Assembly (NCBI GenBank): GCA_963733195.1
Contig: CAVTCR010000062.1
Span: forward strand, 160,001 to 224,000
Source of the DNA: an uncultured delta proteobacterium
Lineage (GTDB): Bacteria; Desulfobacterota; Binatia; Bin18
Length of the DNA stretch: 64,000 bases
Direction of reading: 5' to 3'
Shown here: piece after piece, positions 16,671 to 62,384 of the stretch
Layout: each line of letters begins with the position of its first letter
Numbering within the stretch: the stretch's first letter is position 1
The notes under the pieces: model-generated
Databases searched by the model: none
What the model was told of the DNA's origin: nothing
Seen by the model: the letters and a program-made list of their open reading frames with translations, nothing else
Made by a program: the position numbers and the translations under genes

Positions 16671-16671
16671 A

Positions 16672-32426: not shown

Positions 32427-32496
32427 AGAATACAGATGCTACTGGTTCAAGGCTACGCGAACGGTTCAGGTTATCGTTCAGATTTCGGTTCAGATT
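32427..32496 (-). promoter_or_regulatory. Conserved 70-bp CTGAAC-repeat promoter/operator, copy A (ompA operon)
   Basis: Plus-strand GTTCAA/G boxes at 32445, 32464, 32476, 32488; minus-strand TATTCT 12 bp from the proximal box. Confidence 0.8.
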
Positions 32497-32560
32497 GTAG
32501 GTTTTGGCACTGAATGAGTGCCCCGCAGGTTGTTCGGGTCAAACTAAAAGATTCTCGTGA

Positions 32561-33727
32561 TCAGTCGAGCTGAGCCTGCACCCCCTTCTCGCGAAGACGG
32601 TGCCGAAGCTGAGCCAAGTCCTTGCGATACCTGTCTTCCAGGGGAGACTGTTGCGTCTGTGAGGGTTCTTCAGTATGGTGTCGTTGCCAGCGGCAAAACG
32701 CCAATTCCGTCGCGGTGTGGTGCATTTGTCTCAGCACGAGCCAGGAGCGGAAGCCATGGTTCCTCAGCGCCCGCCATTCAGCTGTCAGGCGACTGCGGAT
32801 GGAAGACAGGCGAGCATACTCCTCTGACGTGAGGGAACCGAGCTGTACCTCGTCGCGCAACCCTGCAGTGACCACATTCGCCTCGCGGCGTAATGCGAGG
32901 ACGGTGATGACGAGCAGCGTAAGGCCGCCGGGACCGATGAACATTGCGACGATGAGAGGAATAGTCACAAAGAGTCCAATCTCATCCGGAGCCGGCTGGC
33001 ACGGCCCTCCTGAAATCTCCTGGTTGCAGAGCACTCCCATAATCATCTGGGAGGCAATAGCATTCCAGGCAATATGCTGCAAGATCGCACCGACCAAGCC
33101 GATCACTGGTGCGAGGAGCCGCATCTTTGCAGAAAGGGCTTCGCGAGCGTATCCGAACCCTGCCCCAGCAGCTGCGGTGAAGGCAGCATGGTTGAATCCG
33201 CCAAGGAAGGATCGCAGATAGATACTCTGCACGAGCCCGGACATTCCGCCCTGTACCGCAGCCAGCGTGAAGTAGCCGAGGTTTTCGGTCATGGCAAATC
33301 CCGTACCCACCAACGCCCCATAGACGATGCCATCAATGACATTGTCGAACTCTTCGTGCCAGAAGAGGAGAAGGATGAACAGAGCTATTGCCTTCGATAT
33401 TTCCTCGATGATGGGTGCAACAAGGACTGGCGTGAGAAGATGAGCCCTATCCGCACCTACAATGTCGATTACCCAGATATGAAAGAAATCGTTGACTGTG
33501 GAGGAGAGGAACGCGGCGATCACCGCGCCCCAGAAGAAGGCCACGAGCAGCAAGCGACCTGGCTCTCGTTCGTAGCGGTCGATAAGAACGAGCAATCCTG
33601 AATAGCAGACCGCGGGGACAAGAGCGGTGAGGAGGATGATCAGAGGCGTCCCCGTTATAAGCCGGACGAACCAGACGACGGGAATGAGAGCCAGAGCAAA
33701 AATACCAATGACGAACCCTCTTCTCAT
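32561..33727 (-). CDS. prsW: PrsW-family glutamic-type intramembrane protease
   Basis: DRYEREP, APIIEEISK, DGIVYG...GFAMTEN, HAAFT, H.AWN. Confidence 0.9.
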   Translation of the reverse strand: MRRGFVIGIFALALIPVVWFVRLITGTPLIILLTALVPAVCYSGLLVLIDRYEREPGRLLLVAFFWGAVIAAFLSSTVNDFFHIWVIDIVGADRAHLLTPVLVAPIIEEISKAIALFILLLFWHEEFDNVIDGIVYGALVGTGFAMTENLGYFTLAAVQGGMSGLVQSIYLRSFLGGFNHAAFTAAAGAGFGYAREALSAKMRLLAPVIGLVGAILQHIAWNAIASQMIMGVLCNQEISGGPCQPAPDEIGLFVTIPLIVAMFIGPGGLTLLVITVLALRREANVVTAGLRDEVQLGSLTSEEYARLSSIRSRLTAEWRALRNHGFRSWLVLRQMHHTATELAFCRWQRHHTEEPSQTQQSPLEDRYRKDLAQLRHRLREKGVQAQLD

Positions 33728-33884
33728 GCAAGAGCTGTAGCATTACCTGGCTAGCACTGCCCGGCTAGGCACCTAGCACGATGAGGGTATCGCTGTCGCC
33801 CGCGCAGCGCAGATATAGGAGGGAACCCATATCCGCGTCAAACCGCGACGCCATGATCCATAGCCAGCAGCAAATTTGCGTGCC

Positions 33885-34160
33885 TTAGAGCGTTCTGCGT
33901 CTGAAGAGATTCACGACTGCCAGGAGAATTACCGCTCCGACGAGCGAGATCAGCAACGCCGGAAAACTAAAGTTGCCCTGATTCAGGGTCCCGATGCCGA
34001 ACAGGGGGGAGAGCAACACCCCACCGAGAAAAGCCCCCACGATACCGACGACGATATTTAGCAAGACCCCTTGTTGCGCGTTGGTCCCCATGATCATACT
34101 TGCGATCCAGCCGATCAATCCGCCCACGATGAGCCAGACGATGAGACTTGTGAGATCCAT
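33885..34160 (-). CDS. GlsB/YeaQ/YmgE stress-response membrane protein
   Basis: WLIVGGLIGWIAS, NIVVGIVGAFLGG, SLVGAVILL. Confidence 0.92.
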   Translation of the reverse strand: MDLTSLIVWLIVGGLIGWIASMIMGTNAQQGVLLNIVVGIVGAFLGGVLLSPLFGIGTLNQGNFSFPALLISLVGAVILLAVVNLFRRRTL

Positions 34161-34258
34161 AAGATACCTCCTTCTATAAATTCTGTGACCGCAGGAAGGA
34201 ATCGGGCCCGCCGAGCGTATCCGATTCTCTTCTCTTGGTTGAATGGGGTGAACCAGCC

Positions 34259-34512
34259 TTACGAGTCCAACGGGATGCGGATCTTTTGTCCGGGGAAGAT
34301 CCGGTCTACATCCTTGATCACTTCCCGGTTTGCCTCGAAGATTCTCGGATACTTGTTGGCATCGCCATAGTACTGCTTGGCAATCTTAGAGAGTGTGTCC
34401 CCCTTTCGGATGAGGTAGTACTCAACCTTTTCCTGCTCCGGCGGATGCTGCAGGCTGGCGACATCGATTTGGCCTACCCCTGGATGTTCCCTGCCATCAG
34501 CACGGCCTTCTG
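34259..34512 (-). pseudogene. Kbp/YgaU-like BON-LysM protein, 5'-truncated (not in the ORF track)
   Basis: Manual translation KAVLMAGNIQG...[50 protein letters not shown]. Confidence 0.8.
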
Positions 34513-34603
34513 CCTCCTCCTTACAGATACGAAAAAGTCTTGCAGAACGTTCCCTGGCTCAAATTGGCGAATGAGGGCTTCCCATGTCCGTTACCTGGCA
34601 GAG

Positions 34604-34673
34604 AGCATACTACTGGTTACAGTTCAAAGATAGGTGGACGGTTCAGGTTAGCGTTCAGATTTCGGTTCAGATT
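34604..34673 (-). promoter_or_regulatory. Conserved 70-bp promoter/operator, copy B (kbp-glsB-prsW)
   Basis: Boxes at 34622, 34641, 34653, 34665; minus-strand TATGCT 12 bp from the proximal box. Confidence 0.8.
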
Positions 34674-34926: not shown

Positions 34927-36876
34927 TTAGGTCCCCTCCTGTAGGCGCGACTCGGCTGTCAGGTGCAGGAACAAGATGCGGCGCACTTCGTTGATGGTGT
35001 GCGGGTTGGCCTGACACGAGTGTCCGGAGCGGACTACCAATTCGGAATCCACATCGTCGAGATGGGCGCTCGAGTACTCCACGATGCCGTCGTTGCCGTT
35101 TTCCACCGGGCCGTTGCCTTCCACAGCAATGATCGAATGTGTGGCGACACCTGGGGTCACTGAGATCGATGCGAGGGTGCGGATGAAGCGCGTCCCTGGC
35201 GTCATGTTGTGGACGGCAGTCGGTATAACCCCCATGGCCGTGAACGCTAGCGCTTCCTTGTTCCGTAGCACCAAGTCGTTGACGCCGTGCACGACGTCGA
35301 GGGGGGCAGTGATAAAGCGAGCAGCCCAGTGACTGAGACGGCTCCCAGCGAAGTAACTCCCACGCTGCGGTGTGGCGATGAATATCAGACGCCGGACGAA
35401 AGGAAGCGGGTGCACGAATGACAAGCGGCGGAGGAGGTCCCGACTCGCCTCCGTCAGGGCGAGTTTCTCCAGCGGCGTTTTGCTGAAGTGGTCCCAGAAA
35501 TGGGTGCCGCTGTCGATGGCGGCCAGCTTGGCCAGCAGCCCGCCTTGGCTGTGCCCGATCACCACCATTTTGCGCAGCGCCGGGTCTTGATGCTCGGGGT
35601 CGAGCCGTTCGAGCGCGGCACTGAGGGATTCGCGTAGCAGCATCGCCGAGTAGAGGACCGGGTTCCCGGTGTTGTAACTGAACAGCCAAAACTGGAAGTG
35701 CTCGCTGATCCGCGGGTCGTTATCGATCTCGTTTACCATCTCAGCCCAGCGGCCCGCGCTCGACCCCGTCCCGTGGACCAGGACGACCGGCATGCGACCC
35801 GGCTTATACGGGCTGAGTGCTGCCAGGCGGCTCTTCTCGTCGATCACCCCAGCACCCTGCAAGAAGCCCTTCAACTCTTGCTGCCAGACCGGGGCTTCAG
35901 CCAGCGTATAGGCCAGCGCCGCCGTCGATTCGACCTCAAGCGGAACGATTCTATCGTCGATCGTGACTGAGCTAGGACCGTACGAGGTATCAAGCTGCAG
36001 GGACGCACGTACACGACCTACCGCCAACTGCTTCCTGGGGTCAGCGATACGCAGGAGTGCGGTCACTGGGACCTTCGCCCAGGGCTGGACGAAGTCCTGA
36101 AAGCCCGCTTTGGGATCAAGCGGGACCGTCCCGGCAGCCAGGGGCGCACCAACACCCGGCCAGCGATAGCGGGTTATCAGCCCAGTCACTTGCAGTTCCG
36201 CCACCGGCACGAAATCAGTGAGCTGGCGGCTCCCCCAGCGCAGGCTCGCCGGGTCGAACTCTACGTCGAGCGCCCCGAAGGGCAGAGCGAACGTTCCCCC
36301 GCGCAGCTCGACTACAGCACCATCTTGCGATTTGAACCCCTCGGTGATCCCCCGGTTGTAGAGGTCAGCGGCTAGCCGCAGCCGCGGGTCGAAGGGGTCC
36401 GGCAAACGGTGGCCCTCACCCGGAAAAAGGAACGTATAGGCGTACACCACGGCTGCCAGGTAGTAAGGGCGTTTCCCGGTGTTTTCAGCGTAGAAGAAGG
36501 AGAGTTCTGCGAGCGCGCAGATATCGTCTCTCCCACCCCGGTCGGCGGCGACCTCGGCGTGGAGGTCAGCCAGCGTCGCCTCGGGCGTATCCTCAAAGCG
36601 TGCGAAAAGATCTCGCCGATAGAGTACGTTCTGGGTTGGATTACTCAGCGTATTAGCCGAGAGGATGCTGGCGGTCAGCGTGTGGTGCACGGCGCGCGGG
36701 TCGATCCGTTTCACCCCGACCGGGGTCGAGCAGGCGCTCGCAATCAGGAAAAGGCAGATGAACAACACCAGGCGGTGGTAGCGACTGTACGCCTCAGCTT
36801 TCGTTGTTTCTAGAGAACACGACAAGGGCGTGCCGCGCCAACTGGATGTTCTCAAGTCACTCCGTTGGTGTACCAT
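34927..36876 (-). CDS. Alpha/beta-hydrolase (lipase/esterase-like) lipoprotein, paralog 1
   Basis: Lipobox IASAC; VHGTGSS, GHSQGG, NDGIV, SGHS (Ser-Asp-His triad). Confidence 0.85.
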   Translation of the reverse strand: MVHQRSDLRTSSWRGTPLSCSLETTKAEAYSRYHRLVLFICLFLIASACSTPVGVKRIDPRAVHHTLTASILSANTLSNPTQNVLYRRDLFARFEDTPEATLADLHAEVAADRGGRDDICALAELSFFYAENTGKRPYYLAAVVYAYTFLFPGEGHRLPDPFDPRLRLAADLYNRGITEGFKSQDGAVVELRGGTFALPFGALDVEFDPASLRWGSRQLTDFVPVAELQVTGLITRYRWPGVGAPLAAGTVPLDPKAGFQDFVQPWAKVPVTALLRIADPRKQLAVGRVRASLQLDTSYGPSSVTIDDRIVPLEVESTAALAYTLAEAPVWQQELKGFLQGAGVIDEKSRLAALSPYKPGRMPVVLVHGTGSSAGRWAEMVNEIDNDPRISEHFQFWLFSYNTGNPVLYSAMLLRESLSAALERLDPEHQDPALRKMVVIGHSQGGLLAKLAAIDSGTHFWDHFSKTPLEKLALTEASRDLLRRLSFVHPLPFVRRLIFIATPQRGSYFAGSRLSHWAARFITAPLDVVHGVNDLVLRNKEALAFTAMGVIPTAVHNMTPGTRFIRTLASISVTPGVATHSIIAVEGNGPVENGNDGIVEYSSAHLDDVDSELVVRSGHSCQANPHTINEVRRILFLHLTAESRLQEGT

Positions 36877-37058
36877 GGAGATCTTCTCCGACTATCCAGA
36901 GCTGAAAGAAGTCGTTGACGTGAATGATGACCCGTCTCTCCATCCAAGAGAATGGAGACAAAGGAGGGAGATACGGTGAGGAGCAAAAAGCTGGGGCGAG
37001 GCAAGGTAAACACAACTGCGAGTTGTTTCAGAGGTGGTCTTAAAAGTCAGGGAAGTTA

Positions 37059-37167
37059 GTCATTGCGATTGGAACGAAGCACTCATTGCCCGCAAAAGAG
37101 ATTGCTTCGTCGCGAAGCCTGTCCTGAGCGATAGCGCAGCGAAATCGAAAGGGCTCCTCGCAATGAC
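37059..37167. repeat. GTCATTGCG...CGCAATGAC-type REP/palindromic element
   Basis: Terminal inverted GTCATTGCG/CGCAATGAC with internal GAAGCA...TGCTTC. Confidence 0.75.
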
Positions 37168-37222
37168 AGCTCCCACCCATGTTTACGAAACGCTCTAGCC
37201 ATGTGTTAGCGTCGCCTGTCAG

Positions 37223-37699
37223 TTACCCTTTCACCTCGAACTCCTTTGTCCCGGTCGAGCGTCCGTTTAAGGAAACCTCCACTTTATAAGTTCCAGCGGG
37301 CCAGCCATCTGGCTTTGAGATATGGAACTCCGTTGCCGCAGGGCCAGTCGGCGCAATGGTCTGAGTGGACTCATTCACCACCTGCCCGTCTTGGTAGGTC
37401 CACTTCGCTGTCAGCGTAGCGCTCGGGGCTGAGCCGTTAGTGACAACTGTCGCGTAAATCGTATCTTTGGGTGCAAATGAAGTTATCTGTTGCTTCACCC
37501 GTTTGTCGGCCCCGATTTGATTCCCGAGTTCAACTGTGGTGACTGTCACAGCAGGTGCAGCGGGCGGAGGAGTCATGGGTGCAGCCGGCGGAGGGGCAGT
37601 GGCTCGCGGAGCCGGTGGCGGCTCAGACTTCCCACAAGCTGCAAAAATCAAGGCTAAGCATAATCCTAACAAGAAAACTGTCTGTCTTGAGTAGCGCAT
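37223..37699 (-). CDS. Pro-rich lipoprotein with Ig-like C-terminal domain
   Basis: Lipobox FAAC, Pro/Ala linker, FHISKPDGWPAGTYKVEV. Confidence 0.75.
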   Translation of the reverse strand: MRYSRQTVFLLGLCLALIFAACGKSEPPPAPRATAPPPAAPMTPPPAAPAVTVTTVELGNQIGADKRVKQQITSFAPKDTIYATVVTNGSAPSATLTAKWTYQDGQVVNESTQTIAPTGPAATEFHISKPDGWPAGTYKVEVSLNGRSTGTKEFEVKG

Positions 37700-37721
37700 C
37701 GCTCACCTCCCCTTTTTTGTC

Positions 37722-37988
37722 TTACGCCTCTGGAATTTTGAGTACCTGTCCCGGACGGATCACATCCGGATTCTTGAGGATGTCGGTATTCGCTTCATAG
37801 ATCTTCCGCCACTTGTTCGCGTTGCCGTACAGACTCTTGGCGATCTTCGACAGAGTGTCTCCTTTGGCGACCGTATATGTGCGGGCCGCACTCTTTGCCG
37901 GGGCGGGGCTCGGTGCAGGGCTCGGCGCGGTGGACGAGCCTCCACTCTGCACATTGGAAAAATCTGGTTTGGGTTTATTGTCCGCCAT
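37722..37988 (-). CDS. Small LysM-domain protein
   Basis: [14 protein letters not shown]...IYEAN...[14 protein letters not shown]. Confidence 0.92.
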
Positions 37989-38131
37989 AGGATTCCTCCT
38001 TTCTCACAGTTATTGAACAAACATTTCCACGAGCAGCCAGCCGTTCTCTCTTACCTGTCCGGGCTCTTTACACGACCGTCGCCCTCAGGTGTTCTTATAT
38101 ACCTTCCTGTCCTACATTCAACAGTGTTGCC

Positions 38132-39091
38132 TTAGCTCTTCACCCGCACGATACAGCGGAACCCGAGGTGACACGTCGAGGTGTCGATCGGCTGGGACAT
38201 GCGCGCCGCCGGTCGGTACCTCTGACAGTAGTTCGGCGCACACAGGTATGAGCCCCCCTTCATCACCTTGCGTGGGATCCGAATGTCGGGCATCCGCGGA
38301 TCATAGCTCTGCTCCCGCTCCCCGCCCGTGGGGTTGATACTTCCGCAACACGAGTGCGAGATCTGGCTGTGCTCTTGGTACCAGTCTGTGGTCCACTCCC
38401 ACACGTTGCCCGCCATGTCATACAGCCCGTAGCCGTTGGGCGGGAACGAGCCCACCGGCGCCGTCCACTCGTATCCGTCGGTCAGCAGGTTCTGGACAGG
38501 GAACTCGCCCTGCCAGGTGTTGGCCATTGACTTCCCACTGGGAGTGAACTCATTCCCCCAGACGAACTCCGCACCGTCCAGCCCTCCACGTGCGGCGCAC
38601 TCCCACTCAGCCTCGGTCGGCAACTCTTTCCCCGCCCACTTTGCGTAGGCTTCCACGTCCTCGTACGCAACATGCACGACAGGGTGATTGGCACGGCCTT
38701 TTAATGTACTGACCGGTCCTTGCGGGTGGCGCCAGTTGGCGCCGGCCACGTACGTCCACCAGGTGTAGGGGTTGCGCAGGTCGACGGACTGACGAGGTTT
38801 TTGGAACACGACCGAGGAGGGCACGAGCATCTCAGGCTTGGCGCCCGGATAGTCCGCCGCGTTCGGCACACGCTCGGCGAGCGTCACATGACCAGTCGCC
38901 TGGACGAAACGGCGGAACTGGTCGTTGGTCACCGTGTACTTGTCCATCCAGAAGCCACCGACAGTTACTGTATGTGCAGGTGCCTCCTCTGGATAATGGT
39001 GATCAGAGCCCATCAGGAAGGTGCCACCGGGAATCCACACCATACCTTCAAACGGCGGCTTACCGAGATCAATTGCCGCTTCCGTTGCCAT
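38132..39091 (-). CDS. Formylglycine-generating enzyme (SUMF1/FGE)
   Basis: FLMGS, LPTEAEWE.AARGG, GLYDMAGNVWEW, GSYLCAPNYC.RYR (catalytic Cys pair), GFRC. Confidence 0.93.
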   Translation of the reverse strand: MATEAAIDLGKPPFEGMVWIPGGTFLMGSDHHYPEEAPAHTVTVGGFWMDKYTVTNDQFRRFVQATGHVTLAERVPNAADYPGAKPEMLVPSSVVFQKPRQSVDLRNPYTWWTYVAGANWRHPQGPVSTLKGRANHPVVHVAYEDVEAYAKWAGKELPTEAEWECAARGGLDGAEFVWGNEFTPSGKSMANTWQGEFPVQNLLTDGYEWTAPVGSFPPNGYGLYDMAGNVWEWTTDWYQEHSQISHSCCGSINPTGGEREQSYDPRMPDIRIPRKVMKGGSYLCAPNYCQRYRPAARMSQPIDTSTCHLGFRCIVRVKS

Positions 39092-39132
39092 AATTGCTAC
39101 CTCCTATCCAACTGCGATGTCTCGCGCACGGG

Positions 39133-39954
39133 TCATTTCTTCGGGAAGAGGAATGTCACGACTACCCGAACGCCCCACTCCGGCCCGCCATCCGGGACTT
39201 CAGGGTAGTACCTGCCCCCCATGCCCAATTGCACCGGCTGTGTCCCCACCCGCAGCACTTGGCTCACGATCCCGTTGACCGGCACCGTCCCCTGCTCGTG
39301 CCGCCAGTCGTACGTCGTCTCAGTGTTGGCAGTCAACGAGAGCCCCTTCTTAAATGTGTACGACAGAAACGGCTGCATGAACGTCGAGTTCACGTTCTCC
39401 CTGCGACTGGTGCCGGCGAGCGACCAGATGTGGTTGGCGAGGATGCCATACGTCCACGGGCCGGACTGCTTCAGCAAGACCGCTGTCGGCCCCAGCCCAA
39501 ACTTCTCGGCCCCCAACAGTTCATCGGTCGCTGTGGGCAGGAAGAAGGCCGGACCGATACCCCAAATGACTCCGCCCGGGCCGGGTGCCTTGGGGGAGAA
39601 GAACTGGCTCGCGAGGATGTCACCTAGGCCGAGCTGGTTGCCCGAGCCGGGAAAGATCTCATCCTGCTGGATGACCGGGACGATGGTGCGAGTGATGAGG
39701 TTCCAGTCGGCGTTGAGCGTGAACGGGATCACCGGCTGTACGTTGAGGGTGTAGCGGAACCCGTCACCACGGTGGCCGAGGTGGGCGTCGTAGTTGTTCT
39801 GAAGCGGCACGCTGATGAGGCTGGCCACTGGGTTCTGTAGCTGTTTGGCCAGGTCTTCCTCACTATGCTGTGCATGCGCCTGACCGCTGAACAGAAAACT
39901 TCCTACGGTCGCACCCAGCAACGTCACAACCAGTCCCGTAATGTAGTCACGCAT
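39133..39954 (-). CDS. Putative outer-membrane beta-barrel transporter
   Basis: Signal peptide, LAKQLQNPVASLISVP, QPVIPF, GLGD, GPAFFLPTAT, terminal TFLFPK. Confidence 0.75.
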   Translation of the reverse strand: MRDYITGLVVTLLGATVGSFLFSGQAHAQHSEEDLAKQLQNPVASLISVPLQNNYDAHLGHRGDGFRYTLNVQPVIPFTLNADWNLITRTIVPVIQQDEIFPGSGNQLGLGDILASQFFSPKAPGPGGVIWGIGPAFFLPTATDELLGAEKFGLGPTAVLLKQSGPWTYGILANHIWSLAGTSRRENVNSTFMQPFLSYTFKKGLSLTANTETTYDWRHEQGTVPVNGIVSQVLRVGTQPVQLGMGGRYYPEVPDGGPEWGVRVVVTFLFPKK

Positions 39955-40203
39955 GTAGTCACTCCTTGATTTCTTCCGTCTATCAAAAACTACTCAACCA
40001 GCGCGGCGAAGTCCGGCCTCCCAACCGCTGCTGCGAAGGTCGGGAGGCAAGTACTTCCGAATAATATCCATGATGTCAGGACACATTCACTCAGGGGCGA
40101 GTAGCTACGAGTGCAAACTCGTGCGAGTCTTGGATTATGATACCCCAAGACTCTTGGACTACTCGCCTCAAGGACTATATCGTGAAAGTACTCCCTTGGG
40201 CAC

Positions 40204-41023
40204 ATGGGCATCAACGCAAAGGGATTACGACCTTTGTGAACGCAATCATTGAGAAAACAAACCCGGCAACCAAGCCGAGCTAGCACGCAGCTTGGGCAAT
40301 CAAGAGGCGGCGCTCAAACGCCTGTCGCGCTTGCTGCATAACGAGCGGCTGGCTCCCCAGCGCCTGGCGGATGCGGTGTTGGCGCAGGCGCTGCGACAGT
40401 TGCCGCCACAGGGAAAATTGCGCTTGGCCGTGGACTGGACGAATGAAGGGACGCAGCATTTGCTGGTGGTCTCACTGGTTACTGGGGGCCGCGCAGATGC
40501 CGCTCTATTGGCGCGCCTACGAACGCCATGGTCTTGAAAGGGCGCATGCGTGGCTATGAGACAGCGGTCATCCGCCGCGCAATCACGTGGATGCAACGGG
40601 CAATTGGACGACCGCCGCTTGATCGTGACGGCCGACCGGGGCTTTGCCGATGTGGCGCTGGTAGACGTACTGAAGGAGCTGGGCGTAGAGTTCATTATTC
40701 GGGTCAAAGGGCGCACCAAAGTCTCTTGTCAGGAGCACTGGTGCAACCTCCACACCCTGCGCTTTGTGGGCAATGCGCGCCAGCGCAACCTGGGACGCCT
40801 GGCCTATTGTGAGAGTGCCCCGCATCGCTTGTGGCTGACGATAGAGTCGTACGCGAGACCGCTATGGGCAGTGGGACACGTGGTACTTGATTGCCAATCG
40901 CTGCCGCCGGGCCCAAGCCACGGCCGCAGAGTATGCGCGTCGGTTTGGCTGTGAGGAAGGGTTTCGCGATGCCAAATGGGAACTGGGCTTTGTACAAGCG
41001 CGGATCACGCAGATCCAAGCGTG
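40204..41023 (+). mobile_element. IS4/IS5-clan DDE transposase remnant, frameshifted and 3'-truncated
   Basis: LAVDWT, VTADRGFAD, FIIRVKG, YARRFGCEEGFRDAK spread over several frames; abuts the sulfatase fragment. Confidence 0.8.
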
Positions 41024-41503
41024 GTTTTCGCGGAAGTGAGGGAATTGCTCCTTCTTCGGATAGTTGTACATCTCTGGCTCTTCCTCGGCATGGAGGTGGT
41101 AGAGGTTGCGAAGAACTCGTCGAAGCCGTGATTGGTGGGCAACATGTGGTTTAGGTCGCCGAGGTGGTTCTTGCCGAACTGCCCGGTGGCGTAGCCCTGC
41201 TCTTTGAGCAGCGCCGCGATGGTGACGATCTTCTCCGACATGCCGACCGGGGCGGCGGGATACCGACCTTGGACAGCCCGGTGCGATAGACGCTCTGCCC
41301 AGTGATGAAGGACGAGCGCCCGGCGGTGCAGGACTGCTCACCGTAGCTGTCGGTGAAGCAACATGCCTTCCTTGGCGATGCTGTGCGATGTTCGGCGTTC
41401 GATACCTGATCAACCCGTGCGAGTAGCAGCTCAGATTCGATTGACCGATGTCATCGCCCCAGATAACGAGGATGTTCGGCTTCTTTTGCGTTTGCTCTGT
41501 CAT
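41020..41503 (-). pseudogene. Arylsulfatase, N-terminal third only
   Basis: KPNILVIWGDDIG, YGEQSCTAGR (Cys-type FGly motif), GYATGQFGKNHLGD, HGFDEF, NLYHL; truncated at the IS remnant. Confidence 0.88.
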
Positions 41504-41800
41504 TGTATTTCCTCCTAAAAATGTGTTCATTTGATTGACCAAGGAGAGGGGAAGGATCGACGTGTGTGAATCCCCCGTGGTCTGGATGATATCCCTTGAA
41601 CGAGGTCATGATGCTGTGAGATAGGTCGGGTGGCGGATCTCGGTTAGACATTTTGGCACTCTACTCCCGCAGTAAAATACTCGCCTGAACTCCGAATCGT
41701 ATGAGATGTGCGGCATCCATCTCTCAGGCTTCTTTATGCCACAATGCAGCGGAAGCCGACGTGCGTGACGCTCTCAATTGCCATGCTCAAGTTGAGGAGT

Positions 41801-41870
41801 ATAATACGTTTGGATATGGTTCGGGGGTAGAGCAATAGTTGAGGGTATCGTTCAGATTTCGGTTCAGATT
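41801..41870 (-). promoter_or_regulatory. Conserved 70-bp promoter/operator, copy C (sulfatase-barrel-FGE unit)
   Basis: Boxes at 41819, 41838, 41850, 41862; minus-strand CG-TATTAT at 12 bp. Confidence 0.8.
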
Positions 41871-43818: not shown

Positions 43819-43888
43819 TTATTACGTCTGGCTACGGTTCAGTGGTAGATAAATCGTTTAGGGTATCGTTCAGATTTCGGTTCAGATT
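43819..43888 (-). promoter_or_regulatory. Conserved 70-bp promoter/operator, copy D
   Basis: Boxes at 43837, 43856, 43868, 43880; minus-strand CG-TAATAA at 12 bp. Confidence 0.8.
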
Positions 43889-44598: not shown

Positions 44599-44856
44599 TT
44601 TATGCCCTCCTTCTTCCCGCCGGCACGAATCTCAGCCTGCGTAGCAGGCGGGTAGAATATAGCCCCGTGTGCAGCATCAGTAGAACACGGGGATGATGAC
44701 GGTCAATCATTCATCACAGCCCGCGGAGCGGGCGACAGACGATTTATGGCGGCAACGTTTAGTGCCATAGATTACCTCTCTGTGACGAGGTGTTTACTGG
44801 ACGATTACCTGTTAGCGAAAGGGCCTGGCGCTGTTGCCATAGTCTGGCTGAAGGGT

Positions 44857-44926
44857 AGAATACGTTTGCCTGTGGTTCAGGGACAGTCAAAGAGGTTAAA
44901 TTATCGTTCAGTTTTCTGTTCAGATT
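44857..44926 (-). promoter_or_regulatory. Conserved 70-bp promoter/operator, copy E (glgX; directly upstream of the divergent regulator)
   Basis: Boxes at 44875, (44894 degenerate), 44906, 44918; minus-strand CG-TATTCT at 12 bp. Confidence 0.78.
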
Positions 44927-48884: not shown

Positions 48885-48907
48885 GTCCTCAGAGAGAAGT
48901 AAATAAT

Positions 48908-50413: not shown

Positions 50414-50457
50414 GACGGCGTCAGCTGAGTGGCGACTCTTGAGGCCTCCCCTTTCAG

Positions 50458-51790: not shown

Positions 51791-51825
51791 CAAAACTTTG
51801 AATTTTAGCTCGTAGGGAGGAATCT

Positions 51826-53118
51826 ATGTCCTGTGTTTCCATACATCAAACGCTGCAACGGAATCGTGTGCACCACCTGTGGAGCAACGTCGCTCGCGTC
51901 GCTGCTGCAACCCTGCTGTGTTGCACTCCGTATGCGGCGTTTGCGAAGACCAAGTCGGACTTCGAGAAACCGCCAGTCCTGGAGGCGAAAGCCCTGGTAC
52001 CGAAAAAGCTGCTCACGGGGAAGGGTGTTCGCATAGAGAACAAGGTCCCTACGGATGGCGTGATGGGGACGTTCACCATTCACGCTGATGCGGACACCTA
52101 CCACGAAAATGCCGGAACGTACCAGGTTCGCGGTCGTGAATTGTTCACGATTCGCATGGGAGAGTTACCCGCGATCGTGAAGTTGGAAGAAACAAGCAAA
52201 ACGGGGACGTTTGTAAAGTCTGTAGCAGCAAACGCGGCCCGGCCGGTCAAGGCTGCCGGGCATATGATCATGAATCCAGTTGACACGGTCACGGGATTGC
52301 CCAGCGGCGTTGGGCGCTTATTCGAGCGGGTTGGGACTGGGGCTGAGCAACTGTGGGATGCGTCGGCAGACTCCGATCAGAGTGGCCTCAAGCAGGCAGG
52401 CGCAGCCACCAGAGATGCACTCGGCTACGAGCAAGAGCGGCGCGAGCTGGCAAAGAAGCTTGGGGTAGACCCGTATACCACAAATCCAGTACTCGCTCAG
52501 AAGCTCGACGAAATCGCGTGGGTGTCCTTTGCCGGTCGCCTTGGGGTCAGCGCAGCAATGGCTGTGGCCGTGCCGGGATCGATGATCATAACTGGCGTGA
52601 GGACCGTAGATAATCTCGTATGGGACACGCCGCGGGGGGATCTGATCGTGCGGGTCGAGACGAAGCTCAAGGAGATGAAGATCCCGGAGGCATCCAGCCG
52701 TGCGTTCATGCACAATCCCGCCATCCCACTGAGTTTGCAGGTCTCCATTGTTGAGAACCTCACCCGCCTGTCCGGGGCTTCAGGGCGCGCGCGCGTCATC
52801 GCGTTAGCGGGTGGTCTCGTTACAGAAAGTCAGACGCGATTTGTTGCCAGCGCGGTGCGCATGCTTGCCGACTACCACGAAGAGACGAAGCCGATCACGG
52901 CAATCGCAGCACCCGGGCCGATACTCGGCCGTGACCGCGACGGGACCCTCGTCGCTCCCGCACCGGTGGACTACATCTCATGGACCGAACGGGTCGCCTC
53001 GTTTGCTACCAGTCCTGACTTGAAGGCGGCACAGCGGACCGTCTTGCTCTCAGGGAAGATGTCGCCGCGCGCCAAGAAAGAGTTCGAGGCGCTCGGTTGG
53101 ACCGTACAGGAGTTCTAA
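51826..53118 (+). CDS. Exported conserved hypothetical protein
   Basis: 430 aa, signal peptide, RELAKKLGVDPYTTNPVL, PVDYISWTE. Confidence 0.7.
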   Translation: MSCVSIHQTLQRNRVHHLWSNVARVAAATLLCCTPYAAFAKTKSDFEKPPVLEAKALVPKKLLTGKGVRIENKVPTDGVMGTFTIHADADTYHENAGTYQVRGRELFTIRMGELPAIVKLEETSKTGTFVKSVAANAARPVKAAGHMIMNPVDTVTGLPSGVGRLFERVGTGAEQLWDASADSDQSGLKQAGAATRDALGYEQERRELAKKLGVDPYTTNPVLAQKLDEIAWVSFAGRLGVSAAMAVAVPGSMIITGVRTVDNLVWDTPRGDLIVRVETKLKEMKIPEASSRAFMHNPAIPLSLQVSIVENLTRLSGASGRARVIALAGGLVTESQTRFVASAVRMLADYHEETKPITAIAAPGPILGRDRDGTLVAPAPVDYISWTERVASFATSPDLKAAQRTVLLSGKMSPRAKKEFEALGWTVQEF

Positions 53119-53147
53119 ATCGAGATGCATGAGATTGGCGCATCTGC

Positions 53148-53220
53148 GTAGGGGCGAAGCATTCGACCGGGCTACATCAGCAAAGAGTCAGGAGCCCGGT
53201 TCTGAATGCTTTGCCCCTAT
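53148..53220. repeat. GTAG-type REP inverted pair
   Basis: GTAGGGGCGAAGCATTC ... GAATGCTTTGCCCCTA. Confidence 0.75.
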
Positions 53221-53259
53221 TGAGGAACGGTCATCCTTTGTCGAAGAAGGAGGGTCGTC

Positions 53260-54087
53260 ATGGAGATGAAACCAGTTCTGCTCAACGTCGCAAACACCCT
53301 CGCCCAAGTCGGGCTAAAGATCATTGCCGCGTTCGTGCTGTACTTAATCGGCCGGTGGTTGATTAACTTCGTTATCCGCCTGATGCAGCGCGGCCTTGAA
53401 AACCAGTATGTTGACCCAACCCTCCAGCGTTATCTCCGCTCAATCGTCTCTGTCCTGCTCAATGTTGCGCTGGCCCTTGCCATCCTCGGTTACTTTGGTG
53501 TGGAGACGACCTCGTTTGCTGCACTGTTCGCCGCGGTTGGCGTAGCGGTTGGTGTAGCCTGGAGTGGCTTGCTCGCGAACTTTGCGGCGGGGGTGCTCCT
53601 TGTGATCTTGCGGCCGTTCGAGGTTGGTAACACTATCAGCGCGGGTGGTGTAACTGGCACGGTCAAGGAGATCGGACTGTTCGCGACGATAATTGACACC
53701 GCCGACAACGTGCGAACGTACGTCGGCAACAACAAACTCTTTTCTGATAACATCCAGAACTTTTCGGCGAATCCCTACCGCCGAGTTGACCTTGTCGCGC
53801 AACTCGATCACCGCGTTGATCACCAGACGGTAATACAACTGTTAAAGAGCGGGCTCGGTGAGATTCCGCATGTCCTCTCTACCCCACCGCCGGAGGTCGA
53901 GATTCTCCAGTGCAACCCCACTGGCCCAGTGCTCGCCGTCCGTCCCTATTGCCATCCGGGTCATCACGGGCAGGTGTATTTTGCAACGAATCGGCTCATC
54001 AACGAAGCCTTGGAGAAGGCGGAGGAGTCTGTTACCGAGCAGCTTTCCGTTTCCCCTCATCAACCGCAGGGGCAGACGGTAGGCTAA
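53260..54087 (+). CDS. mscS: Small-conductance mechanosensitive channel
   Basis: GVETTSFAA, LANFAAGV...RPFEVG, GTVKEIGLFAT, NFS...RRVDL. Confidence 0.92.
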   Translation: MEMKPVLLNVANTLAQVGLKIIAAFVLYLIGRWLINFVIRLMQRGLENQYVDPTLQRYLRSIVSVLLNVALALAILGYFGVETTSFAALFAAVGVAVGVAWSGLLANFAAGVLLVILRPFEVGNTISAGGVTGTVKEIGLFATIIDTADNVRTYVGNNKLFSDNIQNFSANPYRRVDLVAQLDHRVDHQTVIQLLKSGLGEIPHVLSTPPPEVEILQCNPTGPVLAVRPYCHPGHHGQVYFATNRLINEALEKAEESVTEQLSVSPHQPQGQTVG

Positions 54088-54135
54088 ATCAGACCACATG
54101 ACATTCGTACACTTTACACTACGATCCCTCGGGCG

Positions 54136-54193
54136 TGTCATTCTGAGCGAGCGAAGAATCTCTCTGAGACCCTTCGTTTCACTCAGGGTGACA
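54136..54193. repeat. GTCATTCTGAG...CTCAGGGTGAC-type REP
   Basis: TGTCATTCTGAGCGAGCGAAGAATCTC...CTTCGTTTCACTCAGGGTGACA. Confidence 0.75.
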
Positions 54194-54273
54194 ACTTTGG
54201 TGTGCCAATTTTGTGTGTTTCGATTTAGCATTGTCTATTGTCACGCGCCCGACTCTCCTAAGAGGCTCTAGAA

Positions 54274-55269
54274 TTGAAGCGATTCATCACCACCATCATT
54301 ATTGGTTTCATTCTTTTGGGCATGCTCATCTGGGGGACACTCGCGATTGTGTACTCCAACATTCCCTCAGCGTCACTGCGTACCACCTTGAGTTGGGCAT
54401 TCGCCCTTGGGAGTGTCTCTATCCTCCTCTTCCTCCGCCCGTGGAGGCGGGCCGTGTTCATGTTCCTGACGGTCTTCGCCGGGGTTCTCCTGTGGTGGCT
54501 GTCGATTCCTCCCTCACAGAATCGTGACTGGCAGGCTGACGTTACCGCGCTATCCAGCGCGGAGTTCGACGGCGACCGAGTCACGATTCGGAACATTCGT
54601 AACATCGATTACCGCACCGAAACAGATTACACGGTGCAGTATTACGACAAGACCTTCGACCTCTCCAAGTTACGCACAGCGGACTTGTTCATTTCCTTTT
54701 GGGACTCTCCGTATATCGCCCACACCATTATGAGCTTTGGTTTTGGCGGGAACGACTACGTGGCGATTTCTATTGAGACCCGCAAATCCAAAGATGAAGA
54801 GTACTCCGCGATCAAAGGGTTCTTTAAGCAGTATGAGTTGATTTATATCGTCAGTGATGAGCGTGACGTGGTTCGTTTGCGCACGAACTTCCGGGGAGAA
54901 AACGTCTATCTGTATCGACTCGACGCCAAGCCCGAGCTGGTCCGTAGCGTTTTTCTCGACTATTTCACTTATATAAATCACCTAAAGGAGCAGCCAGAGT
55001 GGTACAACGCGCTCACGCACAACTGCACCACTGCCATTCGTGGGCACGTGGTCCCGCATACCAACAACACCCAACGGTTGCCGAACTGGAAGCTTCTCGT
55101 TAATGGCTATTTGGACGGGCGGCTGTACGAGACCGGGGTGATAGACCAGAGTCTCCCCTTTCCGGAGCTTAAAGCCCGCAGCCATATCAATGAGCGCGCC
55201 AAAGCGGCGGACGATGCCCCGGATTTCTCGCAGAAAATTCGCGAGGGACTCCCAGGTATGGGTGAATAA
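54274..55269 (+). CDS. DUF4105 (Lnb N-terminal-like) domain membrane protein
   Basis: Three TM helices; IRNIRNIDYR, IAHTIMSFGF, SIETRK, QYELIYIVSDERD, YNALTHNCTT. Confidence 0.85.
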   Translation: MKRFITTIIIGFILLGMLIWGTLAIVYSNIPSASLRTTLSWAFALGSVSILLFLRPWRRAVFMFLTVFAGVLLWWLSIPPSQNRDWQADVTALSSAEFDGDRVTIRNIRNIDYRTETDYTVQYYDKTFDLSKLRTADLFISFWDSPYIAHTIMSFGFGGNDYVAISIETRKSKDEEYSAIKGFFKQYELIYIVSDERDVVRLRTNFRGENVYLYRLDAKPELVRSVFLDYFTYINHLKEQPEWYNALTHNCTTAIRGHVVPHTNNTQRLPNWKLLVNGYLDGRLYETGVIDQSLPFPELKARSHINERAKAADDAPDFSQKIREGLPGMGE

Positions 55270-55304
55270 ATTTTTCCTTTGCAAACCAACTGTACGGAGA
55301 AAAG

Positions 55305-57272
55305 ATGGAAACGACGCCAAGACATCCACAACACGGAACGATGAGGCACCCCAATGCGCTGGTCGCGGGCGTTGTCGGATGTGTACTTCTGGCCTCAGCC
55401 TGCGCACTGCCAGTGACAGTCAAACGGGGCGAACCTGAGACCGTGCAGCGCGAGTTGACCGGCTACGTTCTCACGACCGGGGAGCCGAGCCTGGCAAGCG
55501 AAAACACCTTGCGCCGCTACTTTTTGACCGAGCGCTTTGAGGATTACCCCGAGCATGCACTTGCCGAGCTCCATGCTGCTGGCATCCGCAACGACGATGC
55601 GAACGCTCTCTTCGTGCTCTCGGAGCTGTCGTTCTCTCACGCTAAGGAAAGCGGCAAGCGCTCGTACTATCTCGCGGCGGCCGTGTACGCGTATGCGTTC
55701 TTGTTCCCCGACGGGGCGGGCACACCGCCTAACCCTATCGATCCCCGCCTGCGGGCAGCCTGTGAGTTGTACAACCGCAGCCTTGCCCAAGCTTTCCTCT
55801 CCGAGGATGAGAAAGAGGTCGCGGTGAAGGCGGGAGTATATCCACTGCCCTTCGGATCACTCACGGTCACGTTTAACGAATCTCAATTGATCTGGGCTGG
55901 TGACCGGAGTCTCACTGGCTTCGTCTCAGCAGCCGATATCCAGATTACGGGCCTTAACAACCGCTATCGGCGTCCAGGTATTGGTGCGCCCCTGGCCGCC
56001 AGTACCGTTCCTCTTAATACTGCGCGGGGAGAGCACGACTTTGTGGCTCCAAAAGTCAAGGTGCCTACCAATCTCTTCCTGCGCATCGAACAACCTAAGC
56101 AAGATCTAGCGAGCGGACACCTGCGGGCGGCACTCGAACTGCGCACGACGCTGGATGCCGACGTTGTCCGGGTTGATAACCGAGACCTCCCTCTGGAATA
56201 CGAGCCGACCGCAGCCCTGGCTTACCAACTCAGCGAATCGACTGTCTGGCAGCGGGAGTTTGCAGGGTTTTTCACGGGTGACTTGCTGCGGATCGAGAAG
56301 GCAACCAGCCTGGCGGCCATGGCCCCACACCGGCCGGGGCGCATTCCGTTGGTCTTCGTCCATGGGACGGCGTCGAGTGCGGGGCGGTGGGCGGATTTGG
56401 TCAATGACTTGCTGAGCGACCCGCGGATCCGGGATAACTACGAGTTTTGGTTCTTTACCTATGACACGGGGAATCCTATTGCCTATTCCGCCGCCCGCTT
56501 ACGGCAAGCACTGCGTGCCGCAGTCGCACGGTTTGACCCGGACGGACGCGACCCTGCCATGCGGCGCATGGTGTTGATGGGCCACAGCCAGGGCGGCTTA
56601 TTAGCGAAGATGATGGTCATCGATACCGGGACCAAGCTCTGGGATAATGTCAGCTCGGTTCCCCTCGAGCAGCTCAAGTTGAGCGACGAGAGCCGGAAAC
56701 TGCTACAGGACAGTCTGTTTGTTGAACCCCTGCCCTTCGTGCGGCGGGTGATCTTCATGTGCACCCCTCACCACGGTAGCTATCAAGCAGGCGGCCGCAT
56801 TATCCATTGGATCACCCGTTTTATGAAACTCCCGGGCGATGTGCTCAATCTCAGCACGGATATGCTGCAAGGCAACGCCGATAAGCTCAAGATCGCGGCG
56901 AACACCAAGATGCCGACCAGCATCGATAACATGACGCCGACCAACCCTTTCATCAAGACGTTAGTGACGATCCCGATCGTGCCGCAAGTGGCGGCGCACT
57001 CCATCATCGCCGTCAAAGGCGAAGGCCCGCCGGAGAATGGGAACGACGGGGTGGTCGAGTACAAGAGCGCGCATATTGACGGCGTGGAGTCCGAGCTGGT
57101 GGTCAACTCCGGGCACTCTGCCCAGAGTAATCCCCACACCGTAGAGGAGGTGCGTCGCATCCTGCTACTCAATGCCAGCGAAGCCTGCGCGCAGGTTGGG
57201 GTTGCATGTGTGAAACCAATTAGGAAAAACGATGAGAACTTCGAAGCGGAGACCCGGGCCCAATTGAAATAG
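55305..57272 (+). CDS. Alpha/beta-hydrolase lipoprotein, paralog 2
   Basis: Lipobox LASAC; VHGTASS, GHSQGG, NDGVV, SGHS. Confidence 0.85.
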   Translation: METTPRHPQHGTMRHPNALVAGVVGCVLLASACALPVTVKRGEPETVQRELTGYVLTTGEPSLASENTLRRYFLTERFEDYPEHALAELHAAGIRNDDANALFVLSELSFSHAKESGKRSYYLAAAVYAYAFLFPDGAGTPPNPIDPRLRAACELYNRSLAQAFLSEDEKEVAVKAGVYPLPFGSLTVTFNESQLIWAGDRSLTGFVSAADIQITGLNNRYRRPGIGAPLAASTVPLNTARGEHDFVAPKVKVPTNLFLRIEQPKQDLASGHLRAALELRTTLDADVVRVDNRDLPLEYEPTAALAYQLSESTVWQREFAGFFTGDLLRIEKATSLAAMAPHRPGRIPLVFVHGTASSAGRWADLVNDLLSDPRIRDNYEFWFFTYDTGNPIAYSAARLRQALRAAVARFDPDGRDPAMRRMVLMGHSQGGLLAKMMVIDTGTKLWDNVSSVPLEQLKLSDESRKLLQDSLFVEPLPFVRRVIFMCTPHHGSYQAGGRIIHWITRFMKLPGDVLNLSTDMLQGNADKLKIAANTKMPTSIDNMTPTNPFIKTLVTIPIVPQVAAHSIIAVKGEGPPENGNDGVVEYKSAHIDGVESELVVNSGHSAQSNPHTVEEVRRILLLNASEACAQVGVACVKPIRKNDENFEAETRAQLK

Positions 57273-60505: not shown

Positions 60506-60609
60506 GGTCTCCTCCTTAATACATAATACACACAAAATATTGACCACTTTGTTCCCAGACGGAGCAGACGGTCCGCCGATTACCTTAGCGCATGGCTGCG
60601 GGACACCGC

Positions 60610-61059
60610 TCACGCAGCCGTTCTGAGACTGAGAGGCCGGTTGACTCTCTGCTTCCTGATCCGTCTTATCTGGGCAGGGCGCTGCTGACGCCACTGCGTG
60701 AGTCCCTTGCGCACGTAATCTGGGTCGAGGCCTAAGGCTGTACAGATATTGACAAAAGAGAACGGCCAGCATTCATCCTGGGAAAAGAACCACGCTTCGG
60801 CTTCTTTGGCGAGACGCTGAGCGCGTTTGCCGTCCTCAACAAAGGGTTTGACAAAACAATTAAAGGCGTCTTCCAGTACCGCACGCATGAGGGCAAACTC
60901 GCCCTGGCCGTGGTCGTGTGGAAGGCCGAAGAACTGCTCCGGCAGCACGGCAACTGAAGATAAGGTGAGACTCGCCGCAGCGGCAGTGGGGGGTGACGGG
61001 AATATGACAGCACTAAAGGGTTGGCCTCGATCTTCCAGCGAGGTACACACGTCCTTCAT
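60610..61059 (-). CDS. Conserved hypothetical protein
   Basis: LMRAVLEDA...EAEAWF...WPFSFVNICTALGLDPDYVR. Confidence 0.7.
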   Translation of the reverse strand: MKDVCTSLEDRGQPFSAVIFPSPPTAAAASLTLSSVAVLPEQFFGLPHDHGQGEFALMRAVLEDAFNCFVKPFVEDGKRAQRLAKEAEAWFFSQDECWPFSFVNICTALGLDPDYVRKGLTQWRQQRPAQIRRIRKQRVNRPLSLRTAA

Positions 61060-61103
61060 AAAGAAAACCTCCGACAGAGAGATAAAAAGGGCGATGCTTC
61101 TTG

Positions 61104-61382
61104 CTATTTCCCGCCCAGCGCAGATTGAACCTTTTTGAGCGTGTCAATGTTTTTCTGCAGCCCACTGACATGATCTTGCATCTCCACAATCGAGGTGCCC
61201 AACTCCCCGACCGAGCCCAGGGCTCCAGAGCCGGCGGCTTGTTTTATCGCCGCCCCTCCCAGGTCTTTCAACTGTGCATCTGCCTTTTGCTGGCTCAACG
61301 AACCGCAGATGAAACCGATGCCAAACATGCCAATGAGTGCGGCCACCCGCAGACTTCGAGCGCTTGTACTTTACTGTGTCAT
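61104..61382 (-). CDS. Small exported coiled-coil hypothetical protein (5' frameshifted)
   Basis: FGIGFICGS, ELGTSIVEMQDHVSGLQKNIDTL; ATG at 61382 with GAGGA RBS. Confidence 0.55.
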
Positions 61383-61503
61383 GATATCCTCACTCTAAAA
61401 ATTGTAATTGTAAGATTCGTATGTTGCCCACGGTCCTGAACTCTCCGGCGGATTCCCGCAGAGAGCAGGCTCCCCGGGATTCTTCTCGCCAACCTCAGAA
61501 CTG

Positions 61504-62253
61504 TTATGTTCTTCGTACCGCTGGAGCGGGTGCATCCGCCACTACGACCTTGTCCGTCTCCTCTTGCCCCAGCCAACGGTACGTGAACCCTGCGAGAATC
61601 GCTCCCACGATCGGTGCAAACCAGAACAACCACAACTGTGCCAGTGCCCAGCCGCCTACAAACAGCGCTGGTCCCGTGCTCCGCGCCGGGTTGACCGAGG
61701 TGTTCGTCACCGGGATGCTAATGAGATGGATCAGGGTTAGCGCGAGCCCAATGGCGATGGGCGCAAACCCCGTCGGCACGCGGCGGTCTGTGGCTCCTAA
61801 GATGATCAAGAGGAACATGTAGGTGAGGAAGAGTTCGGCCACGAACGCCGCCACCAATGTGTAGCCTCCGGGCGAATGGGCTCCATACCCGTTCGCGGCG
61901 AACCCGCTCTGCACGGCATCAAACCCCTCTTTGCCACTGGCAATCAGATACAATACCCAGGCTCCGATCACAGCTCCCGCCACTTGCGCCACAATGTAGG
62001 GGACAAGATCCGCACTCGGGAAGCGGTTACCTGCCCAGGCACCGATGGACACCGCCGGGTTCAGGTGACAGCCCGAGATGTGCCCCACGGCGTACGCCAT
62101 GGTCAGTACGGTGAGCCCGAAGGCAAGGGAGACACCCAGTAACCCGATGCCCACGTTGGGGAAAGCGGCCGCGAGCACGGCACTGCCACAGCCGCCGAAC
62201 ACGAGCCAGGCGGTTCCGATAAATTCTGCGACTAAGCGATTCGCCATTGGCAT
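61504..62253 (-). CDS. aqpZ: Aquaporin Z
   Basis: [44 protein letters not shown]. Confidence 0.97.
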
Positions 62254-62314
62254 ATACTTCTCCTCTCTTTTAAAAAATTTCTTTGTCACAGCTGGCTGCC
62301 ATTGTCTAGGAGAT

Positions 62315-62384
62315 AGAATACGTGCGGCTATGGTTCAGAGATAGGCGAATCGTTCAAGTTATCGTTCAGATTTTGGTTCAGATT
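62315..62384 (-). promoter_or_regulatory. Conserved 70-bp promoter/operator, copy H (aqpZ unit)
   Basis: Boxes at 62333, 62352, 62364, 62376; minus-strand CG-TATTCT at 12 bp. Confidence 0.8.

Follow-up and report, generated by a model that had tools for sequence, protein, structure and literature searches.

To our knowledge, only a few STAND transcription factors have been characterised, namely MalT, GutR and AfsR. In MalT of Escherichia coli the DNA-binding domain is of the LuxR type and lies at the C-terminus. Here we describe a repeated promoter-like element and an adjacent regulator of a different architecture, comprising an N-terminal winged helix-turn-helix (wHTH), a STAND ATPase and TPR, from a 64,000-nucleotide stretch of DNA of an uncultured delta proteobacterium of the Binatia (assembly GCA_963733195.1, contig CAVTCR010000062.1, positions 160,001 to 224,000; hereafter, the window). 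On the evidence of sequence comparison we put at about 0.8 the probability that the copies are activator operator-promoters, that is, weak sigma70 promoters that each incorporate an operator for a one-component activator of the wHTH-STAND-TPR type.

AfsR of Streptomyces coelicolor, which acts at afsS (PMC10936776, 10.64898/2026.09.02.748808), resembles the present family in its N-terminal OmpR-type DNA-binding domain, STAND ATPase and TPR, in its tandem direct repeats, one of them within the -35/-10 spacer, and in having a poor -35 and a small gene as direct target; furthermore, the His of its F/Y-HD latch may have a counterpart in the FxH of the family, although no Asp follows the latter. AfsR covers -40 to -19, including the -35, with R92 at T-38 and T88 at G-36 (PMC10936776). 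The family differs in lacking a BTAD, in its best ATPase match (AAA_16-type rather than NB-ARC), in a proximal box placed 2 bp further upstream (-29 against -27, in our own register), in leaving the -35 without a box and placing two or three boxes upstream of it with a 12-bp period, in a small protein that is predicted to be folded and shows no relation in any comparison made, and in comprising dozens of paralogues with different boxes. The 11-bp direct repeats of SARP/AfsR operators, the upstream one over the -35, are not found at window-type sites, where the -35 is free and flanked by boxes, an arrangement closer to that of GlnR. In the actinobacterial GlnR activation complex four protomers occupy both sides of the -35; three of the four sites suffice, the dispensable one being that shared with sigma region 4 (PMC10235972). 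The likeness lies in OmpR-type winged helices placed head-to-tail either side of the -35, as we predict for the family, whereas GlnR oligomerises through receiver domains where the family has its STAND ATPase and TPR. Ligand-induced oligomerisation gives MalT its DNA binding, and inhibitory partner proteins are described (PMC10427625); it is likewise a STAND activator, and its fold (8bob) is matched by that of the family, but the DNA-binding domain of the family is an N-terminal winged helix. PhoB, OmpR, CadC and ToxR provide the best solved-structure matches of that domain and resemble the family in base reading by helix 3, as predicted for the latter, and in tandem boxes with A/T-rich linkers (PMC3973317), whereas the family has neither receiver nor transmembrane input, its input being STAND-TPR. 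Each ingredient has precedent; what is new is the presence of adjacent arrays in 75 of 113 paralogues, the tracking of helix by box, and the two promoter layouts. No study of the BTAD-less family or its operators was found in the literature covered, which included PMC13581612 and left most subscription papers outside.

Candidate operator-promoters in the window and beyond

Seven copies lie on the minus strand, with boxes spaced 12, 12 and 19 bp apart. Copy 1 (32427..32496; -35 TAGCCT, -10 TATTCT at 32427-32432) points into the ompA unit, copy 2 (34604..34673; -10 TATGCT) into a kbp remnant with glsB-like and prsW-like genes, copy 3 (41801..41870; proximal box CGAAC, -10 TATTAT) into a sulfatase remnant/FGE unit and copy 4 (43819..43888; -10 TAATAA) into a partial DUF1207 gene. 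Copy 5 (44857..44926) points into a glgX remnant and is divergent from the regulator gene; copy 6 (48815..48884; -10 TACTGT) points into the gene of a 64-aa small protein, and copy 7 (62315..62384; -10 TATTCT) into an aquaporin gene, being divergent from a PAS kinase operon. A sequence-only reading of the stretch had proposed one geometry for these seven intergenic copies, and a pattern built from it matched at all seven and nowhere in 200 base-shuffled windows. Its observation that a 24-mer is identical in three copies and one mismatch away in two was reproduced (exact at 32473, 41847 and 43865; one mismatch at 34650 and 62361), with a further copy two mismatches away at 44903. Copy 8 (48905..48964, plus strand), previously taken for an inverted variant at 48908, does face the rightward operon but conforms fully to another spacing type (12 + 21 bp), with proximal box TAAAC, T at -35 and -10 TAAGAA.

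Pairwise identity among the window copies is 0.90-0.95 for box 1 (0.92), box 2 (0.95) and the proximal box, averages 0.61 for box 3, which is degenerate in four copies, and stands at 0.46-0.48 in the spacers against 0.24-0.30 in the flanks. Since the spacers are more alike than the flanks, common descent contributes to the window copies; judged by these identities, the copies share descent and their boxes have been preserved better than their spacers. The spacers, which the earlier reading saw as variable, are not free.

In what follows G000 denotes the source genome, C-numbers its contigs (the window lies within G000:C62) and L-numbers the loci compared. A pattern without any constraint on the -10 gave 40 sites, 15 in G000 and 25 in five relatives. 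Nine of the 15 are on six contigs other than that of the window; with these, and with copies in the genomes of relatives, the regulon is not local as had been supposed. The strict pattern occurs in 7 of 55 family genomes, representing six genera, and 0 times in reversed-pattern controls. A scan of one genome per species returned 43 matches, of which 18 had the true geometry. These came from six assemblies and added nothing to the family scan; the remaining 25 were discarded as simple repeats or other spacings.

Across the 40 sites, box 2 and the last box are 21 bp (21 sites), 31 bp (17) or 32 bp (2) apart, although 21 values were allowed; these distances correspond to two or three helical turns. 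Twelve nt after the last box, where the pattern was likewise unconstrained, lies a -10-like hexamer with T-12 in 37, A-11 in 39 and T-7 in 33 sites. Among the window copies the -10 is TAnnnT in six of seven, which replaces the more specific TAWWNT first suggested. The same reading saw no good sigma-70 -35, and the match to consensus is indeed poor, but its first T, 17 bp upstream of the hexamer, is invariant (40/40), with A and T weakly conserved among the other -35 bases. Placing the hexamer at -12 to -7, the TGAAC box falls at -29 to -25 within the -35/-10 spacer, and the upstream boxes at -50/-62 or -48/-60/-72, so that every box faces the same side of the helix; the upstream period is 12 bp, and a gap of 19 or 21 bp, containing no box, spans the -35. 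Sites lie outside long open reading frames (ORFs) in 38 of 40 cases, against 184 of 400 random positions. A motif that ignored gene orientation had been named at the outset as grounds for rejecting a promoter; in 30 of 32 scorable sites the downstream ORF is on the site's own strand, where random positions divide 134 to 140.

The orientation and distribution of the sites bear on the possibility that the copies represent a duplicated or mobile 70-bp cassette, such as a miniature inverted-repeat transposable element (MITE), a repetitive extragenic palindrome (REP) or a recombination site, with no present regulatory role. Sharp ends, the 46-48% identity of the spacers and the remnant state of several downstream genes in the window would suit a cassette, but terminal inverted arms longer than 6 bp and flanking duplications longer than 5 bp are absent, there are no Rfam matches at gathering score in the whole window, and orientation to genes is strict. 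The element has also persisted in six genera, where it accompanies the same families of target genes. Of 41 pattern matches in viral contigs none showed the spacing of 31, and the two with a spacing of 21 were simple repeats. We regard a functionless cassette as highly improbable. A degenerate inverted copy without a -10 was also noted at L210 (G000:C28:48021, minus strand), facing a gene whose product resembles a phage terminase small subunit.

The candidate regulator and its proposed mode of action

Divergent from copy 5 is a gene for a wHTH (Trans_reg_C)-STAND ATPase (AAA_16)-TPR regulator (44970..48059, plus strand), presently in four frames with three frameshifts. Both rpoB and rpoC (G000:C71:133111-141235) are split into three or more frames, as kdpA in the window (16672-18397) is also split, and one RNA contig of a relative lacks one base at the first frame break of the regulator. 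Given the split rpoB and rpoC and the differing RNA contig, the frame breaks are probably indel errors of the assembly consensus. The N-terminal domain matches Trans_reg_C (PF00486; E 2.4e-17, window 44970-45311), and its top PDB matches are CadC, PhoB and ToxR. An intact orthologue of 1004 aa (L141) contains Trans_reg_C, AAA_16 (E 8.8e-27) and TPR, and its predicted fold has a predicted local distance difference test score (pLDDT) of 90; the best fold match is 6mfv, a STAND-TPR protein (E 2e-11, at a low whole-chain TM-score), and 8bob was also matched. Walker A/B, an arginine sensor, GxP-like and winged-helix His motifs and FxH are conserved in the family, with G167, G170, G172, K173, D288, R319, G383 and H505 invariant in 99 sequences; in F503-x-H505 the next residue is Ala, not Asp, and equivalence to the F/Y-HD latch is by position only. 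In the intact orthologue there is no Response_reg match, the wHTH starting at residue ~17; no BTAD match at E 0.01, the wHTH-ATPase linker, of ~25 residues and low confidence, being too short to accommodate one; and no GerE match that would indicate a C-terminal LuxR-type HTH, the C-terminus being TPR. Relatives are labelled Deltaproteobacteria or Candidatus Binatia; 2180 were found at E 1e-50 among 8000 candidates scored, and the family is present in 80 of 251 genomes sampled from the class.

The co-occurrence of motif and wHTH-STAND-TPR genes, proposed earlier as a check, is found in the family genomes: the closest wHTH clade (>130 bits) is present in five, all motif-positive, and the other two motif-positive genomes carry paralogues from different subclades that are linked to TGAAC (L083, and L070, the latter on the strength of repeated words only). 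At L028, L037, L043 and L055, all loci of relatives, the motif and a wHTH gene are directly divergent, and at three of the four the motif is directed at a 64-aa small gene homologue. Several paralogues in G000 are predicted to read TGAAC-type boxes. The reader of the window copies is likely to be the regulator at 44970-48059 or a close paralogue. At L018 (G000:C8:70267, plus strand) the gene downstream of a TGAAC promoter is itself a wHTH-STAND paralogue, whose recognition helix differs, so that one regulator may control another.

A multi-PAS histidine kinase, a LuxR-type response regulator and a wHTH-STAND-TPR paralogue lie together beside a TGAAC site at L021, L143 and L144, in three genomes; this run is a possible two-component input to regulator expression. 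The same synteny could mean that another factor reads the boxes, either the LuxR-type response regulator beside copy 7 or an alternative sigma factor with TGAAC as its -35, for GAAC resembles the -35 elements of extracytoplasmic function (ECF) sigma factors. However, the response regulator was found in G013 but, with the same query, not in motif-positive G062, G063, G008 and G014 (genomes 74-84% complete), and the layout persists where the boxes are different (CTTAC, CTAAC) and the neighbouring wHTH has another helix. TGAAC lies 12 nt from a sigma70-type hexamer, with a separate T at the true -35, and the spacing led us to reject an ECF sigma. A different reader thus seems to us very unlikely.

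We return to a wHTH-STAND-TPR activator acting at operator-promoters. By analogy with MalT and AfsR, the regulator would rest in an ADP-bound state until a TPR ligand triggers nucleotide exchange and oligomerisation, which would supply multivalency. Several winged helices would then bind head-to-tail either side of the -35, which would be left to sigma region 4, and recruit RNA polymerase, to judge from the GlnR and AfsR structures. Because the order of helix-box covariation (described below) matches the AfsR contacts, the winged helices probably bind in the usual orientation; an inverted orientation relative to PhoB/AfsR, in which the other strand reads GTTCA, was dropped since the covariation order and these contacts (PMC10936776) favour the same orientation. 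Most paralogues may control only their neighbour. The TGAAC clade, by contrast, would have gained many unlinked promoters by cassette duplication, and run a stress/envelope-type regulon; strict orphan copies in G000 number 11 for TGAAC against 0-2 for other boxes tested. Activator-dependent promoters of the OmpR/SARP type had been proposed previously, and orientation, phasing, a -10 recovered without constraint, adjacency to wHTH-STAND-TPR genes in five genomes and helix-box covariation are consistent with this, but the candidate reader, without a BTAD, is no SARP proper.

Copies 3, 5 and 7, which have a divergent gene, each carry a face-to-face sigma70-like promoter on the plus strand at equal offset: at 41778..41805 (scoring 11 of 12) toward an EAL gene (41989-42741), at 44834..44861 (10/12) toward the regulator gene, with the copy 5 boxes in its leader, and at 62292-62319 (8/12) opposite copy 7. 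As the boxes lie in the leader of the divergent gene, this suggests autorepression at the regulator locus; binding would also damp the divergent gene at all three copies, the regulator included. An ATGGCA word is common to copies 3, 5, 6 and 7 and to G000:C28:48083, 10-20 nt past the -10; read on the opposite strand, it forms the -35 of the face-to-face promoter at copies 3 and 5.

The same protein and sites might act mainly in repression, the spacer box blocking the target promoter, or the boxes blocking the face-to-face promoter, until ligand relieves it. A box inside the -35/-10 spacer occupies the classic position of a repressor, class I paralogue promoters (below) have a fair, ATGACT-like -35, and the strong face-to-face promoters of copies 3 and 5 are directed into the boxes. 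Yet the poor -35 of TGAAC promoters leaves little to repress, strict phasing of the upstream boxes suits recruitment, and orphan copies retain the whole layout without a divergent gene. AfsR, moreover, activates from a spacer site (PMC10936776). We judge repression as the main action to be unlikely.

Certain observations weigh against activator operator-promoters all the same. The RNA runs, which held 5-9% of words, consist of contigs of relatives and as such yield neither starts nor levels; they give no cover over the promoters. Several window targets are remnants though their promoters are intact. Three close-clade paralogues (L057, L058 and C62:226404) lack a directly adjacent array; two of them are separated from a site by 2-4 kb that include a PAS kinase gene and one for a LuxR-type regulator. 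Finally, the face-to-face arrangement found no support as a general autoregulatory promoter, occurring at 3 of 75 paralogue loci without enrichment.

Recognition helices and boxes across paralogues

G000 contains 48 winged-helix matches, some of them fragments of one gene, and 17 small-gene matches, mostly as divergent pairs. From G000 and the family genomes 119 winged-helix loci were collected and 113 kept, among which an adjacent box array was called in 75 by fixed rules (null 0.3% per class). Arrays of class I consist of 11-bp repeats ending 14 bp before an ATGACT-like -35; those of class II, the window type, combine a poor -35 with a spacer box. All 25 calls with Gly at one wing position are class II and 45 of the 50 with other residues are class I (one clade, not independent). 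The boxes vary by paralogue and include TGAAC, CTTAC, CTAAC, CCCAG, CTCAC, TCGAC, ATCAC, TACAC and CTTGG, among others.

Six exposed helix positions were chosen by analogy to Thr194, Val197 and Arg201 of PhoB (PMC3973317). Similarity at these residues correlates with box similarity (partial rho 0.45, p 0.001), against 0.11 for the other 82 domain columns. Between the two promoter classes the correlation is 0.41 (p 0.0005), a value reached by 0 of 300 random six-column sets and one that linkage cannot explain. With close kin excluded, at least five of six bases are recovered in 35 of 75 cases when the nearest neighbour is chosen by helix, but in 11 of 75 when it is chosen on the remainder of the domain. 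Among the 68 rows in register, Lys or Arg at one helix position accompanies C at box position 5 in 43 of 43, and other residues do so in 3 of 25. On a helix-masked tree, both TGAAC and CTTAC turn up on either side, each time with similar helices. By these comparisons, box sequence tracks the recognition helix more than it does the rest of the domain. Gly at the first helix position was found with TGAAC in L367 and L384, read by eye, and a simple rule for the last position was abandoned, Ala occurring with TGAAC in L258-L262.

Several features detract from this result. The six positions were picked after the table was seen, 7 of 75 rows were dropped from the residue-base counts for register errors, and the rows are kin, so that all counts overstate. 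The register between PhoB residues and paralogue helix positions is in part assumed. A class-wide orthologue (L343-L361, L368) has a near-constant recognition helix without an adjacent box array. A hold-out from other families, with predictions noted beforehand, comprised 60 loci but nine callable arrays (null 2/300). Within it Lys or Arg accompanied C in 8 of 8, the remaining one having G; a Gly wing meant class II in 7 of 7; and the helix predictor averaged 3.6 of 5 against 2.9 for shuffled pairing (p 0.001), barely above the rest-of-domain predictor (3.3 of 5). A metagenome hold-out did no better than always guessing TGAAC; it was uninformative because the boxes of all close relatives resemble TGAAC, and in four calls the register had slipped.

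A broader proposal, advanced tentatively and as one joint claim that we would sooner expect to fail than to hold, is that wHTH-STAND-TPR proteins of this lineage form a natural library of NLR-like transcription switches that are for the most part orthogonal. Some six residues of the helix would specify a 5-6 bp box through a readable code, the wing residue would go with the layout (upstream-only, or straddling sigma region 4 without a BTAD), and the 64-aa first target would be a dedicated co-factor or feedback inhibitor.

Predicted target genes and wider meaning

The predicted minus-strand targets begin with an OmpA-family lipoprotein followed by DUF202, DUF1622 and DUF202 (31689..32414, copy 1). 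The copy 2 unit (32561..34575) comprises a kbp remnant (LysM end, 34260-34575), a transglycosylase-associated protein (33885-34160) and a PrsW-family protease (32561-33727). Probable targets of copy 3 (34927..41542) are a sulfatase 5' remnant (41005-41542), an FGE-sulfatase, a LysM protein, a lipoprotein and an alpha/beta hydrolase; the sulfatase remnant is cut off by what is presumably a transposase-like remnant (about 40292-40954), judged by its sequence and not by a family match. Copy 4 precedes the partial DUF1207 gene (42826..43485), copy 5 a glgX/isoamylase remnant whose start is joined to the C-terminal domain (44069..44598), copy 6 the 64-aa gene (48565..48759), whose product is the usual first target of these promoters, and copy 7 the aquaporin (MIP) gene (61504..62289). 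On the plus strand, copy 8 faces an operon (49453..57272) with MscS (53260-54087), Lnb_N (54274-55269) and alpha/beta hydrolase (55305-57272), and a multi-PAS histidine kinase gene starts at the end of the window (62479..64000); genes for a LuxR-type response regulator and another wHTH-STAND-TPR paralogue come after it, outside the window. The copies thus point into the genes named by the sequence-only reading, but kbp, sulfatase, glgX and DUF1207 are partial, being deletion or insertion remnants behind intact promoters.

In a survey of 62 of 132 listed ORFs, the families met in at least two genomes downstream of sites or within the operons concerned were Lnb_N with alpha/beta hydrolase, MscS, aquaporin, sulfatase, PPIase with HupE_UreJ_2, FadL-type porin, DUF202/DUF1622, DUF2092 and DUF6384; among those met once are carbonic anhydrase, TauD, GAPDH and a phosphorylase fragment. 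From its predicted members the target set looks like one of general stress and envelope. OmpA, MscS, aquaporin, FadL-type porin and PPIase agree with the envelope/osmotic regulon originally envisaged, but sulfatase, carbonic anhydrase, TauD, GAPDH and glycogen genes are also covered.

The 64-aa protein has 305 relatives, with look-alike clusters in Tectimicrobiota and Chloroflexota, and matches no Pfam family. Its model has three strands and one helix; fold searches gave no clear match (best Z 4.5), nor was there a Foldseek match at E 0.001. A divergent winged-helix gene lies beside it in 31 of 54 metagenome loci with enough upstream DNA, and it may, speculatively, be a feedback partner of the regulator.

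Elsewhere the window contains a kdpABC/kdpD potassium-uptake cluster with kinase and regulators (10602-18397, minus strand), an IS256-type transposase (19501-20805), a resolvase remnant (25762-26325) and, at 49154-49192, a short REP-like repeat matched by many unrelated RNA contigs.

The family is large and has cognate operators beside its genes, and so offers a dense natural data set for DNA reading by OmpR-type helices. Its promoters could show how a STAND oligomer activates RNA polymerase without a BTAD, and they allow regulons to be predicted for a soil lineage that is uncultured. Once ligands or autoactive forms are found, synthetic biology might gain orthogonal switches. If the proteins do constitute a natural library, the operators and regulons of thousands of unstudied regulators would become predictable, and the switches could be re-aimed, from sequence.

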